From assembly GCF_048403405.1 (NCBI RefSeq), contig NZ_CP183129.1: a DNA stretch of 64,000 bases. One strand, written 5' to 3'. Shown here one piece after another: positions 13,494-48,754 of this stretch. This DNA comes from Escherichia coli (GTDB taxonomy: Bacteria; Pseudomonadota; Gammaproteobacteria; Enterobacterales; Enterobacteriaceae). Made by a program: the position numbers and the translations under genes. Each line of letters starts with the position of its first letter. The first letter of the stretch is position 1. The notes beneath the pieces were generated by a model. The model worked only from the letters and a program-made list of their open reading frames with translations, had not been told where the DNA came from and ran no database searches.

Positions 13494-15079
13494 TTCCCGG
13501 CTGGTTAATTCCAGGAATAAGCGCCGCTACGCTTGTGGTGGCGGTTGCGCTGGCGGCGTTTCTCGCCCTGTGGTGGAACGCGCCGCAGGGTGACTGGTCG
13601 GCAGTCTGGCAGGACAGCTATCTGTGGCATGTGGTGCGCTTCTCCTTCTGGCAGGCGTTTCTCTCTGCGCTGCTCTCTGTCGTGCCCGCGATATTCCTTG
13701 CCCGCGCCCTCTACCGCAGGCGCTTTCCAGGACGGCTGGCGCTGTTGCGTCTGTGTGCCATGACCTTGATCCTCCCGGTGCTGGTTGCTGTTTTCGGCAT
13801 TCTTAGCGTCTATGGTCGCCAGGGCTGGCTGGCATCGCTCTGCCAATCGCTCGGTCTGGAGTGGACCTTTTCGCCCTACGGCCTGCAAGGTATTTTGCTG
13901 GCCCATGTGTTTTTTAATCTGCCGATGGCGAGCCGTTTATTACTTCAGGCACTGGAAAACATTCCCGGCGAACAACGTCAGCTTGCCGCCCAGCTTGGGA
14001 TGCGCGGCTGGCATTTTTTCCGCTTCGTCGAATGGCCGTGGTTACGGCGACAAATCCCGCCAGTTGCTGCGCTTATCTTTATGCTCTGTTTCGCCAGCTT
14101 CGCCACCGTGCTGTCGCTGGGCGGCGGTCCGCAGGCGACCACTATCGAGCTGGCTATTTATCAGGCGCTGAGTTACGACTACGATCCTGCCCGCGCGGCG
14201 ATGCTGGCGTTGATCCAGATGGTGTGTTGCCTCGGGCTAGTGCTGTTGAGTCAGCGATTGAGTAAGGCCATTGCGCCCGGCACTACGCTGCTGCAAGGCT
14301 GGCGCGACCCGGACGATCGTCTGCATAGCCGCATTTGCGACACGGTGTTAATTGTGCTGGCGCTGTTGCTGTTGCTGCCACCGTTACTGGCGGTGCTCGT
14401 CGATGGGATAAATCGCCAGTTGCCGGAAGTGCTGGCGCAGCCGGTGCTGTGGCAGGCGCTGTGGACCTCGTTGCGTATTGCGCTGGCGGCAGGCGTATTA
14501 TGCGTAGTGCTGACCATGATGCTGCTATGGAGCAGTCGCGAACTGCGGGCGCGGCAAAAAATGCTGGCGGGTCAGGCGCTGGAGATGAGCGGTATGTTGA
14601 TCCTCGCCATGCCGGGGATTGTGCTGGCAACGGGCTTCTTTTTGCTGCTCAACAACACCATTGGCCTGCCACAATCTGCTGACGGCATTGTGATTTTCAC
14701 CAATGCGTTAATGGCGATCCCTTACGCGCTGAAAGTGCTGGAAAACCCGATGCGCGATATCACCGCCCGCTACAGCATGTTATGTCAGTCGCTGGGGATT
14801 GAAGGCTGGTCGCGCTTAAAAGTGGTGGAACTGCGCGCCCTGAAACGTCCGCTGGCGCAGGCGCTGGCTTTTGCTTGTGTGCTGTCGATTGGTGATTTTG
14901 GCGTGGTGGCGTTGTTCGGTAACGATGATTTCCGCACCCTGCCGTTTTATCTCTACCAGCAAATTGGCTCCTATCGCAGCCAGGACGGTGCGGTCACCGC
15001 GTTAATTCTGCTACTGCTCTGTTTTATGCTGTTTACCGTGATTGAAAAACTACCGGGGCGAAATGTTAAAACTGACTGA
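13469..15079 (+). CDS. thiP: Thiamine ABC transporter permease
   Basis: ORF 13469..15079, 536 aa, polytopic membrane protein; overlaps the thiB 3' end by 25 nt. Confidence 0.94.
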
Positions 15080-15761
15080 TATCACCTGGCTTTACCACCA
15101 TTTGCCGATGCGTTTTAGCTTAACGGTGGAACGCGGCGAGCAGGTGGCGATCCTCGGGCCAAGCGGCGCGGGTAAAAGTACCCTGCTGAATTTGATCGCC
15201 GGTTTTCTGACGCCAGCCAGCGGTTCGCTGACTATCGACGGCGTTGATTACACCACGACGCCGCCGTCACGCCGTCCGGTATCGATGCTGTTTCAGGAGA
15301 ACAACCTGTTCAGTCACCTGACGGTCGCGCAGAACATCGGGCTGGGGCTTAACCCTGGATTGAAGCTGAACGCGGCGCAGCAGGAGAAAATGCACGTGAT
15401 TGCCCGTCAGATGGGGATTGATAATTTAATGGCGCGGTTACCGGGCGAGCTTTCCGGCGGTCAGCGACAGCGCGTGGCGTTAGCGCGTTGTCTGGTACGC
15501 GAACAGCCGATTTTATTGCTCGATGAACCGTTCTCTGCGCTCGATCCGGCGTTACGTCAGGAGATGCTGACGCTAGTGAGCACGAGCTGCCAACAGCAAA
15601 AAATGACGCTATTGATGGTGTCGCACAGTGTGGAAGATGCGGCGCGGATCGCCACACGCTCGGTGGTGGTCGCCGACGGGCGCATCGCCTGGCAGGGTAA
15701 GACTGAAGAATTGTTGAGCGGTAAGGCGAGTGCTTCAGCGCTGTTGGGGATTACAGGTTAA
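15063..15761 (+). CDS. thiQ: Thiamine ABC transporter ATP-binding protein
   Basis: ORF 15042..15761; start trimmed to [13 protein letters not shown]... (232 aa); Walker [10 protein letters not shown] and ABC signature [13 protein letters not shown]. Confidence 0.93.
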
Positions 15762-15773
15762 AAGCACACGGAC

Positions 15774-15815
15774 AGCCCCCTCGCCCCTCCGGGGAGAGGG
15801 TTAGGGTGAGGGGAA
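15774..15815. repeat. GC-rich dispersed repeat (box C-like), copy 1
   Basis: ccccctcgcccctccggggagagggttagggtgaggggaac between convergent thiQ and yabI; near-identical to the element at 21230..21272. Confidence 0.55.
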
Positions 15816-15842
15816 CAAACCAGCGCCGATGCAAACTATCCC

Positions 15843-16607
15843 CTAAACCCCAACCACTTTACGCAAAATATCGATATACACCGGCATCAACGGGTGGCGA
15901 ATTAACACCACCAGCGCCACCACGCCGATGGCAGAAATCAACGGCGTCAACCACAACAAACGACCGTGCGACAAATAATGACTTAAACGATCGGTTGCTT
16001 TGCCGCTGCGCCATAACCGCCAGCACAGCCAGCCCCCAACCCACAAAAATACCGCCGTCGCCAGCAGCAACCATTTAAACTCACCACTCTGCATCCCGGC
16101 AGGAATATCGATCGCCGCGCCCGCCAGAATCCCTGGCAGGAAGTAAAACGGCGGCCACAGCAGGCAGCCTATAATATTCGGCGTAATGAATTTTGCCACC
16201 GGGAGATCCAGCATTCCCGCCACCATTGGCACCAGCGGACGCGTCGGGCCAACAAAGCGACCGACCAGAATGGTGAACATGCTGTGTTGATGCAACGCAT
16301 GTTCAGTTTTATCGAGTAATGCTTTGTTTTTCTTCAGAAATGACCAGCGATGCAATGGCTTTTTAAAACGCCAGCCCAGCCAGAAAGAGATCCAGTCGCC
16401 CAGCAGGCAACCGACGATCCCTGCCAGCCAGGCGTGCCAGAAACTTAACTCGCCACTGCCAATCAGCGCCCCCAGTCCCGCCATTAGCACCGTACCGGGT
16501 AAAATCAAACCGACCAGCGCCAGCGACTCCAGAAAGGCCACCAACACCACCGCCATCAATGAATACACGGTGGATTGGGTAATAAAGTGTTCCAGCAATG
16601 CTTGCAT
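15843..16607 (-). CDS. yabI: DedA-family inner membrane protein
   Basis: ORF 15843..16607, 254 aa, hydrophobic multi-pass protein. Confidence 0.9.
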   Translation of the reverse strand: MQALLEHFITQSTVYSLMAVVLVAFLESLALVGLILPGTVLMAGLGALIGSGELSFWHAWLAGIVGCLLGDWISFWLGWRFKKPLHRWSFLKKNKALLDKTEHALHQHSMFTILVGRFVGPTRPLVPMVAGMLDLPVAKFITPNIIGCLLWPPFYFLPGILAGAAIDIPAGMQSGEFKWLLLATAVFLWVGGWLCWRLWRSGKATDRLSHYLSHGRLLWLTPLISAIGVVALVVLIRHPLMPVYIDILRKVVGV

Positions 16608-16692
16608 AATGTGCCTGTCAAATGGACGAAGCAGGGATTCTGCAAACCCTATGCTACTCCGTCAAGCCGTCAATTGTCTGATTCGTTACCAA

Positions 16693-17571
16693 TTATGACA
16701 ACTTGACGGCTACATCATTCACTTTTTCTTCACAACCGGCACGGAATTCACTCGGGCTGGCCCCGGTGCATTTTTTAAATACTCGCGAGAAATAGAGTTG
16801 ATCGTCAAAACCAACATTGCGACCGACGGTAGCGATAGGCATCCGGGTGGTGCTCAAAAGCAGCTTCGCCTGACTAATGCGTTGGTCCTCGCGCCAGCTT
16901 AAGACGCTAATTCCTAACTGCTGGCGGAACAGATGCGACAGACGCGACGGCGACAGGCAAACATGCTGTGCGACGCTGGCGATATCAAAATTGCTGTCTG
17001 CCAGGTGATCGCTGATGTACTGACAAGCCTCGCGTACCCGATTATCCATCGGTGGATGGAGCGACTCGTTAATTGCTTCCATGCGCCGCAGTAACAATTG
17101 CTCAAGCAGATTTATCGCCAGCAGCTCCGAATAGCGCCCTTCCCCTTGCCCGGCGTTAATGATTTGCCCAAACAGGTCGCTGAAATGCGGCTGGTGCGCT
17201 TCATCCGGGCGAAAGAAACCCGTATTGGCAAATATTGACGGCCAGTTAAGCCATTCATGCCAGTAGGCGCGCGGACGAAAGTAAACCCACTGGTGATACC
17301 ATTCGCGAGCCTCCGGATGGCGACCGTAGTGATGAATCTCTCCTGGCGGGAACAGCAAAATATCACCCGGTCGGCAGACAAATTCTCGTCCCTGATTTTT
17401 CACCACCCCCTGGCCGCGTATGGTGAGATTGAGAATATAACCCTTCATTCCCAGTGGTCGGTCGATAAAAAAATCGAGATAACCGTTGGCCTCAATCGGC
17501 GTTAAACCCGCCACCAGATGGGCGTTAAACGAGTATCCCGGCAGCAGGGGATCATTTTGCGCTTCAGCCAT
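16693..17571 (-). CDS. araC: Arabinose operon regulator AraC
   Basis: ORF 16693..17622; start trimmed to [23 protein letters not shown]... (292 aa). Confidence 0.95.
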
Positions 17572-19610
<2,039 letters not shown>

Positions 19611-19620
19611 GGACACGACA

Positions 19621-21123
19621 ATGACGATTTTTGATAATTATGAAGTGTGGTTTGTAATTGGCAGCCAGCATCTGTATGGCCCGGAAACCCTGCGTCAGGT
19701 CACCCAACATGCCGAGCACGTCGTTAATGCGCTGAATACGGAAGCGAAACTGCCCTGCAAACTGGTGCTGAAACCGCTGGGCACCACGCCGGATGAAATC
19801 ACCGCTATTTGCCGTGACGCGAATTACGACGATCGTTGCGCCGGCCTGGTAGTGTGGCTACACACTTTCTCCCCGGCCAAAATGTGGATCAACGGCCTGA
19901 CCATGCTCAACAAACCGTTGCTGCAATTCCACACCCAGTTCAACGCGGCGCTGCCGTGGGATAGCATCGATATGGACTTTATGAACCTGAACCAGACTGC
20001 ACATGGCGGTCGCGAGTTCGGCTTCATTGGCGCGCGTATGCGTCAGCAACATGCCGTGGTTACCGGTCACTGGCAGGATAAACAAGCCCATGAGCGTATC
20101 GGCTCCTGGATGCGTCAGGCGGTATCTAAACAGGATACCCGTCATCTGAAAGTCTGCCGTTTTGGCGATAACATGCGTGAAGTAGCGGTCACCGATGGTG
20201 ATAAAGTTGCCGCACAGATCAAGTTCGGTTTCTCCGTCAATACCTGGGCGGTTGGCGATCTGGTGCAGGTGGTGAACTCCATCAGCGATGGCGATGTTAA
20301 CGCGCTGGTCGATGAGTATGAAAGCAGCTACACCATGACGCCTGCCACACAAATCCACGGCGAAAAACGCCAGAACGTGCTGGAAGCGGCGCGTATTGAG
20401 CTGGGGATGAAGCGTTTCCTGGAACAAGGTGGCTTCCACGCGTTCACCACCACCTTTGAAGATTTGCACGGTCTGAAACAGCTTCCTGGTCTGGCCGTAC
20501 AGCGTCTGATGCAGCAGGGTTACGGCTTTGCGGGCGAAGGCGACTGGAAAACTGCCGCCCTGCTTCGCATCATGAAGGTGATGTCAACCGGTCTGCAGGG
20601 CGGCACCTCCTTTATGGAGGACTACACCTACCACTTCGAGAAAGGTAATGACCTGGTGCTCGGCTCCCATATGCTGGAAGTCTGTCCGTCGATCGCTGTG
20701 GAAGAGAAACCGATCCTCGACGTTCAGCACCTCGGTATTGGCGGTAAAGATGATCCAGCGCGCCTGATCTTCAATACCCAAACCGGTCCAGCGATTGTCG
20801 CCAGCTTGATTGATCTCGGCGATCGTTATCGTCTGCTGGTTAACTGCATCGACACGGTGAAAACACCGCACTCCCTGCCGAAACTGCCGGTGGCGAATGC
20901 GCTGTGGAAAGCGCAACCGGATCTGCCAACTGCTTCCGAAGCGTGGATCCTCGCTGGTGGCGCGCACCATACCGTCTTCAGCCATGCGCTGAACCTCAAC
21001 GATATGCGCCAGTTCGCCGAGATGCACGACATTGAAATCACGGTGATTGATAACGACACCCGCCTGCCAGCGTTTAAAGACGCGCTGCGCTGGAACGAAG
21101 TGTATTACGGATTTCGTCGCTAA
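19621..21123 (+). CDS. araA: L-arabinose isomerase
   Basis: ORF 19621..21123, 500 aa. Confidence 0.96.
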
Positions 21124-21125
21124 GT

Positions 21126-21228
21126 AGCTGCATCAGGTGTGTAACGCCTGATGCGACGCTGGCGCGTCTTATCAGGCCTACACGCTGTGATTTTGTAGGC
21201 CGGATAAGCAAAGCGCATCCGGCATTGT
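21126..21228. repeat. REP (repetitive extragenic palindromic) element cluster
   Basis: Tandem palindromic units of the gcctgatgcgacgc / gcgtcttatcaggcctac / ggccggataag...gcatccggca type between araA and araD. Confidence 0.7.
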
Positions 21229-21229
21229 T

Positions 21230-21272
21230 TTCCCCCTCGCCCCTTTGGGGAGAGGGCCGGGGTGAGGGGAAA
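21230..21272. repeat. GC-rich dispersed repeat (box C-like), copy 2
   Basis: ccccctcgcccctttggggagagggccggggtgaggggaaac, directly upstream of the araD RBS; matches copy 1 at 15774..15815 with a few substitutions. Confidence 0.55.
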
Positions 21273-21291
21273 CGACCTCTCAGGAGTCAAC

Positions 21292-21987
21292 ATGTTAGAA
21301 GATCTCAAACGCCAGGTATTAGAAGCCAATTTGGCGCTGCCAAAACATAACCTGGTCACGCTCACATGGGGCAACGTCAGCGCCGTTGATCGCGAGCGCG
21401 GCGTCTTTGTGATCAAACCTTCCGGCGTCGATTACAACGTCATGACCGCTGACGATATGGTCGTGGTCAGCATCGAAACCGGTGAAGTGGTTGAAGGAAC
21501 GAAAAAGCCCTCCTCCGACACGCCAACTCATCGGCTGCTCTATCAGGCATTCCCGTCCATTGGCGGCATTGTGCATACGCACTCCCGCCACGCCACCATC
21601 TGGGCGCAGGCGGGCCAGTCAATTCCGGCAACCGGTACCACCCACGCCGACTATTTCTACGGCACCATTCCCTGCACCCGCAAAATGACCGACGCAGAAA
21701 TCAACGGTGAATATGAGTGGGAAACCGGTAACGTCATCGTAGAAACCTTCGAAAAACAGGGTATCGATGCGGCGCAAATGCCCGGCGTCCTGGTCCATTC
21801 TCACGGCCCATTTGCATGGGGCAAAAATGCCGAAGATGCGGTGCATAACGCCATCGTGCTGGAAGAGGTCGCTTATATGGGGATATTCTGCCGTCAGTTA
21901 GCGCCGCAGTTACCGGATATGCAGCAAACGCTGCTGAATAAACACTATCTGCGTAAGCATGGCGCGAAGGCATATTACGGGCAGTAA
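21292..21987 (+). CDS. araD: L-ribulose-5-phosphate 4-epimerase
   Basis: ORF 21262..21987; start trimmed to [19 protein letters not shown]... (231 aa). Confidence 0.95.
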
Positions 21988-22015
21988 TGACTGTATAAAA
22001 CCACAGCCAATCAAA

Positions 22016-22049
22016 CGAAACCAGGCTATAATCAAGCCTGGTTTTTTAT
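22016..22049 (+). terminator. Rho-independent terminator after araD
   Basis: gaaaccaggct-ataatca-agcctggttt hairpin followed by TTTTTATT. Confidence 0.7.
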
Positions 22050-22061
22050 TGGATTTTCAAC

Positions 22062-24413
22062 GTGGCGCAGGCAGGTTTTATCTTAACCCGACACTGGCGG
22101 GACACCCCGCAAGGGACAGAAGTCTCCTTCTGGCTGGCGACGGACAACGGGCCGTTGCAGGTTACGCTTGCGCCGCAAGAGTCCGTGGCCTTTATTCCCG
22201 CCGATCAGGTTCCCCGCGCTCAGCATATTTTGCAGGGTGAACAAGGCTTTCGCTTGACGCCGCTGGCGTTAAAAGATTTTCACCGCCAACCGGTGTATGG
22301 CCTTTACTGTCGCGCCCATCGCCAGTTGATGAATTACGAAAAGCGCCTGCGTGAAGGTGGCGTTACCGTCTACGAGGCCGATGTGCGCCCGCCAGAACGC
22401 TATCTGATGGAGCGGTTTATCACCTCTCCGGTGTGGGTCGAGGGTGATATGCGCAATGGCGCTATCGTTAATGCCCGTCTGAAACCGCATCCCGACTACC
22501 GTCCGCCGCTCAAGTGGGTTTCTATTGATATTGAAACCACCCGCCACGGTGAGCTGTACTGCATCGGCCTGGAAGGTTGCGGGCAGCGCATCGTTTATAT
22601 GCTGGGGCCAGAGAATGGCGACGCCTCCGCGCTCGATTTTGAACTGGAATACGTCGCCAGTCGCCCGCAGCTACTGGAAAAACTCAACGCCTGGTTTGCG
22701 ACTCACTATCCCGATGTGATCATCGGCTGGAACGTGGTGCAATTCGATCTACGAATGCTGCAAAAACATGCCGAGCGTTACCGTATTCCGCTGCGTCTTG
22801 GACGTGATAACAGCGAGCTGGAGTGGCGCGAGCACGGCTTTAAAAACGGCGTCTTTTTTGCCCAGGCCAAAGGGCGACTGATTATCGACGGTATCGAGGC
22901 GCTGAAATCCGCGTTCTGGAATTTCTCTTCATTCTCGCTGGAAACCGTCGCTCAGGAGTTATTAGGCGAAGGAAAATCTATCGATAACCCGTGGGATCGG
23001 ATGGACGAAATTGACCGCCGTTTCGCCGAAGATAAACCTGCGCTGGCAACTTATAACCTGAAAGATTGCGAGCTGGTGACGCAGATCTTCCACAAAACTG
23101 AAATCATGCCGTTTTTACTCGAACGAGCGACGGTGAACGGCCTGCCGGTGGATCGGCACGGCGGTTCGGTGGCAGCGTTTGGTCATCTCTATTTTCCCCG
23201 AATGCATCGCGCTGGTTATGTCGCGCCTAATCTCGGCGAAGTGCCGCCACACGCCAGCCCTGGCGGCTATGTGATGGATTCGCGGCCAGGGCTTTATGAT
23301 TCGGTGCTGGTGCTGGACTACAAAAGCCTGTACCCGTCGATCATCCGCACCTTTCTGATTGATCCCGTCGGACTGGTGGAAGGCATGGCGCAGCCTGATC
23401 CAGAGCATAGCACCGAAGGTTTTCTCGATGCCTGGTTCTCGCGGGAGAAACATTGCCTGCCGGAGATTGTGACTAACATCTGGCACGGGCGCGATGAAGC
23501 CAAACGTCAGGGTAATAAGCCGCTTTCGCAGGCGCTGAAGATCATTATGAATGCCTTTTATGGCGTGCTTGGCACCACCGCCTGCCGCTTCTTCGATCCG
23601 CGCCTGGCGTCGTCGATCACCATGCGTGGTCATCAGATCATGCGGCAAACCAAAGCGTTGATTGAAGCGCAGGGCTACGACGTGATCTACGGCGATACCG
23701 ACTCAACGTTTGTCTGGTTGAAAGGCGCACATTCGGAAGAAGAAGCGGCGAAAATCGGTCGTGCACTGGTGCAGCACGTTAACGCCTGGTGGGCAGAAAC
23801 GCTGCAAAAACAACGACTGACCAGCGCACTGGAACTGGAGTATGAAACCCATTTCTGCCGTTTTCTGATGCCAACCATTCGCGGAGCCGATACCGGTAGT
23901 AAAAAGCGTTATGCCGGGCTGATTCAGGAGGGCGATAAGCAGCGGATGGTGTTTAAAGGGCTGGAAACCGTACGCACCGACTGGACGCCGCTGGCCCAGC
24001 AGTTTCAGCAGGAGCTTTACCTGCGTATCTTCCGCAACGAGCCATATCAGGAGTACGTCCGCGAAACCATCGACAAACTGATGGCGGGTGAACTGGATGC
24101 GCGGCTGGTTTACCGTAAACGCCTTCGCCGTCCGCTGAGCGAATATCAGCGTAATGTTCCGCCTCATGTACGCGCCGCTCGCCTTGCCGATGAAGAAAAC
24201 CAAAAGCGCGGTCGCCCCTTGCAATATCAGAACCGCGGCTCCATTAAGTACGTATGGACCACCAACGGCCCGGAGCCGCTGGACTACCAACGTTCACCAC
24301 TGGATTACGAACACTATCTGACCCGCCAGCTACAACCCGTGGCGGAGGGAATACTCCCTTTTATTGAGGATAATTTTGCTACACTTATGACCGGGCAACT
24401 TGGGCTATTTTGA
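22062..24413 (+). CDS. polB: DNA polymerase II (B-family)
   Basis: ORF 22062..24413, 783 aa; exonuclease and polymerase motifs (YGDTDS) present. Confidence 0.96.
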
Positions 24414-28159: not shown

Positions 28160-28242
28160 ACGCTGGCGAAGTTCAGTAGGCCGGAGAAGGCGTTTACGCC
28201 GCATCCGGCAATTTTGCACCGATTGCCTGATGCGACGCGGGC
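28160..28242. repeat. REP element cluster, interrupted at its right edge by the IS element
   Basis: taggccggagaaggcgtttacgccgcatccggca...gcctgatgcgacgcgggc; the matching partner ggccgcgtcttatcaggcctat lies on the other side of the IS at 29676..29697. Confidence 0.65.
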
Positions 28243-28997
<755 letters not shown>

Positions 28998-33182: not shown

Positions 33183-36276
<3,094 letters not shown>

Positions 36277-45484: not shown

Positions 45485-47471
<1,987 letters not shown>

Positions 47472-48645: not shown

Positions 48646-48740
48646 TCCGTGCGCTGCCTGATGCGACGCTGACGCGTCTTATCAGACCTACGGGAGCACG
48701 AATGTAGGCCGGATAAAGCGTTTACGCCGCATCCGGCAGT
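48646..48740. repeat. REP element cluster
   Basis: gcctgatgcgacgctgacgcgtcttatcagacctac...gtaggccggataaagcgtttacgccgcatccggca between caiA and caiB. Confidence 0.7.
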
Positions 48741-48754
48741 CATGCGCTACATAA

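Follow-up and report, generated by a model that had tools for sequence, protein, structure and literature searches.

Two copies of one repeat in the window

The window analysed here, a stretch of 64,000 nucleotides (64 kb) of Escherichia coli DNA, carries two copies of a GC-rich repeat. Both are intergenic and lie in transcribed spacers, in sense orientation relative to the upstream gene. Copy A occupies the convergent thiQ/yabI spacer, between the thiQ stop codon (15759-15761) and the yabI stop codon (complement of 15836-15838). Copy B lies between araA (stop codon, 21121-21123) and araD (ATG at 21292), immediately 3' of a REP/BIME unit and 10 nt 5' of the araD Shine-Dalgarno sequence. An earlier, sequence-only reading of this DNA had placed the repeats in these same spacers, the second beside a REP cluster and just upstream of the araD ribosome-binding site, and this placement is correct. 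Both sequences are likewise present as it reported, but its intervals began 2 nt early, the 40-bp cores running from 15776 to 15815 (+) and from 21232 to 21271 (+).

The two cores are identical at 35 of 40 positions in an ungapped alignment, and all five differences are confined to two loops (TCC versus TTT and TTA versus CCG). A degenerate 40-mer, searched with up to three mismatches, matched the 64 kb twice, at copies A and B, with 0.00 matches expected from 100 dinucleotide-preserving shuffles of the window. The near-identity that had been claimed for the two copies is thus well beyond the level of chance. GC-richness alone could be taken to favour a fortuitous resemblance of two spacers, but the absence of any match in the 100 shuffles, the restriction of the differences to loops and the tens of thousands of family members described below refute that explanation. 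No third copy was found in the 64-kb window with a 35-nt consensus allowing up to seven substitutions.

In the element, a C-rich arm precedes two G-rich arms, both of which are complementary to it. The dyad symmetry noted previously is therefore real in that complementary arms are present, but the defining architecture has three arms where only two had been recognized. The full conserved unit is also longer than the 42 bp first noted, since alignment of copy A with the K-12 fimH-gntP copy revealed 56 bp in common. The features of both copies are collected in Table 1. Over the stretches tested, the window is 100% identical to strains GN02461 and TUM14771.

Table 1. Coordinates of the two repeat copies and of adjoining features in the window
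Feature	Coordinates	Strand	Basis or remark
BoxC/TMECO type A copy, full 56-bp unit	15769..15824	+	CGGACAG, 40-bp core and CAAACCAGC in common with fimH-gntP; outer flanks unrelated
Copy A arm 1, C-rich, CCCTCGCCCC (G at the 'mm' position)	15778..15787	+	TMECO regular expression; triplet table
Copy A arm 2, GGGGAGAGGG, after loop 1 (TCC)	15791..15800	+	9/10 Watson-Crick pairs with arm 1
Copy A arm 3, GGGTGAGGGG, after loop 2 (TTA, type A)	15804..15813	+	
Copy A arms 2 and 3, canonical G4 motif	15791-15813	+	21-nt core identical to HPG1
Strain-variable 57-bp block with copy B	21225..21281	+	TTGTTTT, core and ACGACCTCTC; alignment of five spacers
Copy B arm 1, CCCTCGCCCC, with type B-typical TTTT on its 5' side	21234..21243	+	
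Copy B arm 2, GGGGAGAGGG, after loop 1 (TTT)	21247..21256	+	
Copy B arm 3, GGGTGAGGGG, after loop 2 (CCG, type B)	21260..21269	+	
Copy B arms 2 and 3, G4 motif	21247-21269	+	Core identical to HPG2
REP/BIME unit adjoining copy B (context, outside BoxC)	21126..21224	+	One to three units depending on strain
araD Shine-Dalgarno (AGGAG) and ATG	21282..21294	+	13 nt downstream of copy B arm 3

Identity with the BoxC/PIT/TMECO/HPG family

Both sequences belong to an intergenic repeat family long known in E. coli and described as BoxC, PIT, TMECO and HPG. Descriptions of the family under one or other of these four names go back to the 1990s, and one of the two window copies is already catalogued. Earlier work on BoxC is said to include that of Bergler in 1992 and of Bachellier in the 1990s. 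The older definition of BoxC gave a unit of 56 bp and 32 copies.

The TMECO pattern is 5'-CCCTCNCCC-N3-6-GGGNGAGGG-N3-GGGNGAGGG-3' (Holder, Hartig et al., NAR 2015, PMC4666352). A search of both strands of the window with the corresponding regular expression returned only 15778-15812 and 21234-21268. According to Holder et al. (PMC4666352), TMECO is the element earlier named BoxC and re-described by the Maher laboratory as the PIT element (2000/2002); we accept the equivalence of BoxC and TMECO on the basis of that statement and of the matching unit length (56 bp). The same authors distinguish two types by the second loop, TTA in type A and CCG in type B (PMC4666352). Copy A accordingly belongs to type A and copy B to type B, and both carry the common G mismatch in arm 1 that marks the published 'mm' subtype.

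Kaplan et al. (NAR 2016, PMC5100583) described the same element as HPG1, GGGAGAGGGTTAGGGTGAGGG, and HPG2, GGGAGAGGGCCGGGGTGAGGG, noted a conserved C-rich flank on the 5' side, and read the G-rich half as a 'G-quadruplex-hairpin-duplex switch'. The HPG1 sequence occurs exactly in copy A and the HPG2 sequence exactly in copy B. In addition to these exact 21-mers, copy B shares with HPG2 a T-rich tract 5' of the C-rich arm. The HPG description differs in its name and in its structural reading of the same element, and the switch function is a proposal.

We aligned six E. coli copies, the copies used here being drawn from BLAST matches and published tables. The invariant portion comprises CCCTCnCCC, a 5-nt loop, GGGAGAGGG, a 3-nt loop and GGGTGAGGG, and the flanks are only semi-conserved. 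Among E. coli copies a compensatory change from CCCC..GGGG to CCCT..AGGG was observed in arms 1 and 2. It is because of the three-arm architecture that the literature treats the element as an intrastrand triplex or a G4-prone motif.

The araA-araD copy corresponds to entry 82 of Supplementary Table S8 of Holder et al. (NC_009801, strain E24377A, 68414-68379, CCCTCGCCCCTTTGGGGAGAGGGCCGGGGTGAGGGG), and its BLAST coordinates in E24377A agree with that entry. Copy A has the same core as MG1655 TMECO #23, located between fimH and gntP; a comparison of the thiQ-yabI locus with the 63 published loci found only identical core sequence at other loci. The 'box C-like' label attached to the repeats by the sequence-only reading was therefore apt, given the fit of both copies to the published pattern, the HPG1 and HPG2 21-mers and the catalogued araA-araD copy. 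With BoxC/PIT/TMECO the window copies share the pattern, the three arms, the loop types, the 'mm' G, the intergenic location, a copy number of about 20-30 per genome, the variability of loci and the 56-bp unit. They differ from it in nothing of kind, although both window loci are unoccupied in K-12 MG1655.

Identity with REP/BIME was also considered and rejected: the REP consensus palindrome (of the GCCGGATG...CATCCGGC type) is lacking, and the copies do not align with the adjacent REPs. REP/BIME units, and REPINs with their RAYT transposases, resemble BoxC as short, GC-rich, palindromic intergenic repeats that lie in transcribed spacers, often as inverted doublets, and REP/BIME units occupy both window spacers in other strains. 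BoxC differs from them in its unrelated sequence, its third arm, its far lower copy number and its lack of a known cognate enzyme. For annotation, the two spacers can now be labelled BoxC/TMECO type A (thiQ-yabI) and type B (araA-araD).

Copy number and strain polymorphism in E. coli

The element had been proposed to be a dispersed repeat with further copies to be sought genome-wide, and these are abundant. Of 5426 complete E. coli genomes, 5421 carry the element, at 94,442 places in total by BLAST. The number per genome has a median of 19 and reaches 36 at most, and only 48 of all these places are plasmid-borne. In MG1655, 23 copies were reported, all of them intergenic (Holder et al., PMC4666352).

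Comparison of strains for presence or absence, which had likewise been proposed, revealed that both window loci are polymorphic. Junction-spanning queries assign the BoxC form of araA-araD to 1565 of the 5426 genomes (29%; absent from about 71%) and that of thiQ-yabI, a minority allele, to 253 of the 5426 (4.7%). Neither spacer is occupied by BoxC in K-12, on which our own alignments and the table of 23 MG1655 sites of Kaplan et al. agree.

At thiQ-yabI, K-12-like strains and most others hold a REP/BIME pair, or its remnant, between the two stop codons. The K-12-like strains have the full REP pair, and ERL05-1306 has a truncated REP remnant. Across the spacer (15762-15835), only the two stop codons are conserved between the alternative forms. 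The coding flanks of thiQ and yabI in the window are 90-95% identical to those of most E. coli, and this modest identity suggests that the segment may be divergent or recombinant.

An alignment of five E. coli spacers was used for araA-araD. Strain 1162T7 has one BIME unit followed directly by CGA-AGGAG, O157:H7 has two BIME units, and the 284-bp spacer of K-12-like strains has three. In the window and in strain HS, one BIME unit is followed by the 57-bp BoxC block, at a position that in strains lacking BoxC holds just CGA or additional BIME units. The length of the spacer ranges from about 114 to 284 bp, with one, two or three REP/BIME units. The right junction of the single BIME in the BoxC allele (GGCATT) resembles one between two BIMEs inside an array, as though the units downstream had given way to BoxC.

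At neither locus did we find clean insertion or deletion junctions, an empty site or a target-site duplication; at each locus, one entire segment stands in place of another. This replacement agrees with the observation that 'intergenic changes' are far commoner at TMECO loci than in control spacers among 56 strains (Holder et al., PMC4666352). The araA-araD and thiQ-yabI spacers are thus examples of BoxC and REP/BIME replacing one another between strains, a variation relevant to the use of these spacers as typing or engineering sites and to araBAD constructs derived from non-K-12 strains. Since REP/BIME units are themselves variable and share or swap both spacers, BoxC may be a passenger of this variation and not its cause.

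RNA-level properties and araBAD expression

On the RNA level, hairpins of -24.5 and -26.5 kcal/mol are predicted for the plus strand, in line with the stable mRNA hairpin envisaged by the sequence-only reading, and of -21.6 and -24.1 kcal/mol for the reverse complement. In both copies, which are G variants, pairing of arm 1 with arm 3 (-20.3 and -24.2) is predicted to prevail over pairing with arm 2 (-16.7 and -16.4), and in a T-variant copy arm 1 is predicted to prefer arm 2. Purine-motif triplexes do not form in RNA (PMC4666352). A search of positions 15000-22500 with Rfam covariance models (E <= 10) gave no match to the element beyond chance level. Weak matches to naRNA4 cover the neighbouring REPs, with a marginal overrun into the element at E = 0.78.

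Two specific roles in gene expression were rejected. The element does not have the form of an intrinsic (Rho-independent) terminator, because the sequence 3' of the hairpin is GAACAAACC or GAAACGACC and not a U-tract; a terminator scan returned a single marginal site, on the minus strand and built on part of arm 1. Occlusion of the araD ribosome-binding site is not predicted either. In partition-function folding of five natural spacer alleles, accessibility from the Shine-Dalgarno sequence to the AUG was 0.61 with BoxC and 0.63-0.71 without it, which is about the same.

A broader proposal is that the hairpin, in the araBAD mRNA and in the thiQ/yabI 3' untranslated regions, blocks 3'-to-5' exonucleases or guides processing, in the manner of REP elements, and would thereby determine the segmental stability of the mRNA. 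Both copies do lie in transcribed spacers, sense to the upstream gene, and strong hairpins are predicted on both strands. REP/BIME units are mRNA stabilisers, and the fact that BoxC takes their place at both loci is compatible with interchangeable roles. However, the element is missing from araA-araD in most genomes, the predicted accessibility of the araD ribosome-binding site is unchanged, and no U-tract follows the hairpin. Moreover, there is no bias of strand or position relative to genes in MG1655 (PMC4666352, PMC5100583). As far as they are summarised in PMC4666352, the reporter tests of Hoyne & Maher (2002) likewise revealed no promoter, terminator or RNA polymerase effect, and no effect on conjugation. 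We therefore regard a role as an RNA element as very doubtful, and an effect on araBAD mRNA processing or stability is speculation.

Occurrence beyond E. coli and the question of mobility

The proteobacterial distribution of the family was described by Holder et al. (PMC4666352), who counted 3610 copies in 262 genomes, and occurrences in Synechocystis and Haemophilus are credited to Hoyne et al. in that article's account of their work. We scanned a collection of species-representative genomes, and IMG/VR viral contigs, with the pattern GGGAGAGGGNNNGGGTGAGGG, in which arms 2 and 3 are fixed. For a wider census we propose a relaxed-arm pattern, in which a complementary arm is followed by GGGNGNGGG-N2-5-GGGNGNGGG.

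Among the species-representative genomes, at least 120 stretches from at least about 16 metagenome-assembled genomes (MAGs) matched GGGAGAGGGNNNGGGTGAGGG. The matches listed include alpha-proteobacteria (Afipia, Pseudolabrys, Tardiphaga and Hyphomicrobiales), gamma-proteobacteria (Contendobacter and another MAG), delta-proteobacteria, Verrucomicrobia, Armatimonadota, Nitrospirales and Candidatus Gracilibacteria, the last with loci of 28% GC. Within these listed matches the core is multi-copy in Verrucomicrobia, Armatimonadota, Gracilibacteria and several proteobacterial classes. A perfect arm 1 lies just upstream in 102 of the 139 genome matches listed and an arm 1 with one mismatch in 15 more; most of the remaining listed matches have a longer loop. 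The viral contigs yielded at least 146 matches in at least 120 stretches, and arm 1 is perfect in 106 of the matches listed and has one mismatch in 29. Because the scans fixed arms 2 and 3, the sequence identity across phyla is partly a matter of construction.

The flanks differ by lineage, and the Gracilibacteria keep only a core of about 37 bp. One Candidatus Gracilibacteria MAG has at least 20 copies of this GC-rich core in its AT-rich CPR genome, with unconserved flanks, and at one Gracilibacteria locus the arrangement is tandem, with an extra pair of G-rich arms. In the MAG GL140_5_metabat_74_sub, the core is embedded in a repeat of about 107 bp, TTAGTGCCTTACGGCTTCGTAACAGTGATAAAAAGAACGTTGTTGCCCCCTCCCTCGCCCTCT-core-TTGCGGGCTCCGCCCGCGTTAG, with TTAG at both ends. 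This repeat forms two subfamilies of at least 14 and at least 9 near-identical copies, which suggests that it may have been amplified or spread recently.

Sequenced phages and plasmids gave a sparser picture. The element was present in 3 of 50,697 phage records and in 501 of 72,556 plasmid records, most of the latter being very large replicons from genera such as Rhizobium, Sinorhizobium and Klebsiella. The Campylobacter phages A18a (MG065686.1) and A11a (MG065691.1) each have 47-nt matches in two places, with 91.5% identity to the BoxC unit; in these AT-rich genomes the matches are surprising and may reflect contamination or chimeric assembly. Related predicted prophage contigs (IMG/VR UViGs) carry the element at a conserved syntenic position.

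These data bear on the suggestion that the BoxC/TMECO core is a pan-bacterial module, present in viral contigs as well, and not an enterobacterial or proteobacterial peculiarity. We consider this quite unlikely; were it true, it would imply a sequence-specific mechanism of propagation or selection, for example a REPIN-like one with an enzyme acting on single-stranded DNA, and copies A and B would be its decayed products. The spread beyond Proteobacteria is a difference of degree, since Holder et al. and Hoyne et al. had already reported wide occurrence.

A related explanation, which may coexist with the one that we favour below, is that BoxC is a REPIN-like non-autonomous mobile unit, often an inverted doublet of a type A and a type B element. 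A trans-acting enzyme would copy the unit as single-stranded DNA, and the single elements of the window would be decayed halves. Inverted adjacent pairs do occur in E. coli, in distant genomes and in viral contigs, and the sequence flanking copy A on the right is similar to the linker within the copy pairs at alx-sstT and ygfF-gcvP. The TTAG-bounded repeat, with at least 14 near-identical copies of 107 bp in a single MAG, and the multi-copy core across phyla and in at least 120 IMG/VR stretches also point in this direction. However, an all-against-all BLAST comparison of 2455 ORFs within 1.5 kb of copies, made in search of a linked enzyme, recovered only syntenic prophage relatives, so that no transposase or other family recurs beside the element at unrelated loci; the ORFs between paired copies at two MAG loci are ordinary genes. 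The lack of target-site duplications or clean empty sites at both polymorphic loci, the near absence from sequenced phages, the rarity on E. coli plasmids and the partly constructed identity across phyla also argue against mobility, and Holder et al. saw no link to mobile elements (PMC4666352). On balance, we judge the REPIN-like explanation to be unlikely.

DNA folding and the most likely reading

The arms of both copies are compatible with triplex formation. Nine of ten triplets are of a canonical class II kind (C.G*G or T.A*T), and the remaining one is the G.A*A mismatch of the 'mm' subtype. In single-stranded DNA, arm 1 would pair with arm 2 by Watson-Crick bonds, and arm 3 would fold back on arm 2 in reverse-Hoogsteen fashion, giving an intrastrand purine-motif (class II) triple helix. 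The single-stranded G-strand oligonucleotide was found by CD and NMR to form such an intrastrand triplex, with 18 sharp imino signals and a Tm of 70-82 C (PMC4666352). The oligonucleotides concerned had the same arms and loops as the window copies (PMC4666352). With the complementary strand present, the oligonucleotide was a duplex, and in vivo DMS footprinting revealed no triplex protection (Holder et al., PMC4666352). With H-DNA, the mirror-repeat triplex, the proposed fold has in common a triple helix of the purine motif, built from G*G.C, A*A.T and T*A.T triplets. It differs in that one strand of BoxC folds back on itself twice and must be single-stranded to do so, and in that there is no long homopurine mirror repeat extruding from supercoiled duplex.

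An alternative fold was put forward by Kaplan et al. (2016), in which a G4 of three tetrads, built from arms 2 and 3, is in competition with hairpin and duplex and modulates the transcription of neighbouring genes. Arms 2 and 3 of the two copies do account for two of only three canonical G4 motifs in the 64-kb window (four tracts of at least three G, loops of 1-7 nt). Calculations with DNA parameters slightly favour the G4 (-12.6 and -12.7 kcal/mol, versus -11.3 kcal/mol for the hairpin), and the published CD data are compatible with G4 and hairpin forms (PMC5100583). With RNA parameters, in contrast, the G4 is not competitive, and the 18 sharp imino signals in the NMR spectrum of the full element fit the triplex and not a G4 (PMC4666352). 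The position of the element relative to promoters is inconsistent (PMC4666352, PMC5100583), and the literature reports no regulatory phenotype. A regulatory G4 switch thus appears highly improbable.

Taken jointly, we put a probability of roughly 80% on the reading that the two copies are non-essential, structure-prone repeats in permissive spacers, not dedicated regulators, whose transient folding would promote local rearrangement. That the repeats are simply tolerated in such spacers is the most likely reading of the window. The tolerated sites would be the 3' ends of genes and the gaps between the genes of an operon. As the best of the mechanisms on offer, transient folding during replication or repair would hinder polymerases and promote local deletion or replacement, which would fit the strain variability of both sites and their alternation with REP/BIME units. 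PIT elements block DNA polymerase in vitro, according to the summary of Hoyne & Maher (2002) given in PMC4666352. The plus strand of the window shows a negative GC skew, and the G-rich strand would accordingly be, in all likelihood, the template for leading-strand synthesis. In addition, a MutL ChIP study of 2024 found the G4 set of Kaplan et al., 23 of whose 52 members are BoxC, enriched in MutL-bound hot spots of replication error. The link between the element and instability is a correlation, and we infer both the structure in vivo and any causal role in instability.

Against this reading stands the extreme conservation of the arms, distant phyla included, which is difficult to reconcile with a purely neutral and instability-prone sequence. 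How and why so short a three-armed sequence is so conserved and so widespread is a question at the level of the family. For the window itself the significance is low, the element having been characterized biophysically and comparatively before.

Other repeats and motifs in the window

The only other canonical G4 motif of the window, GGGGAGTTGGGGGAATAAGGGCGGAGGG at 34632-34659 (-), is located inside a 329-aa ORF (34469-35458, +), on its antisense strand, and has no relation to BoxC. An AT-rich intergenic region at 45580-45710 contains three copies of CACCAATATTGAAA and two of an overlapping inverted TTTCAATATTG, which gives it the appearance of arrayed palindromic sites for protein binding. Positions 54473-54553 and 56096-56176 form an 81-nt direct repeat (70% identity, 1623 bp apart), with a second repeat family of the same spacing nearby; the likely origin is an old duplication inside a single long gene. 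Further REP/BIME clusters, akin to that between araA and araD, are located at 28176-28260 and 48656-48745.
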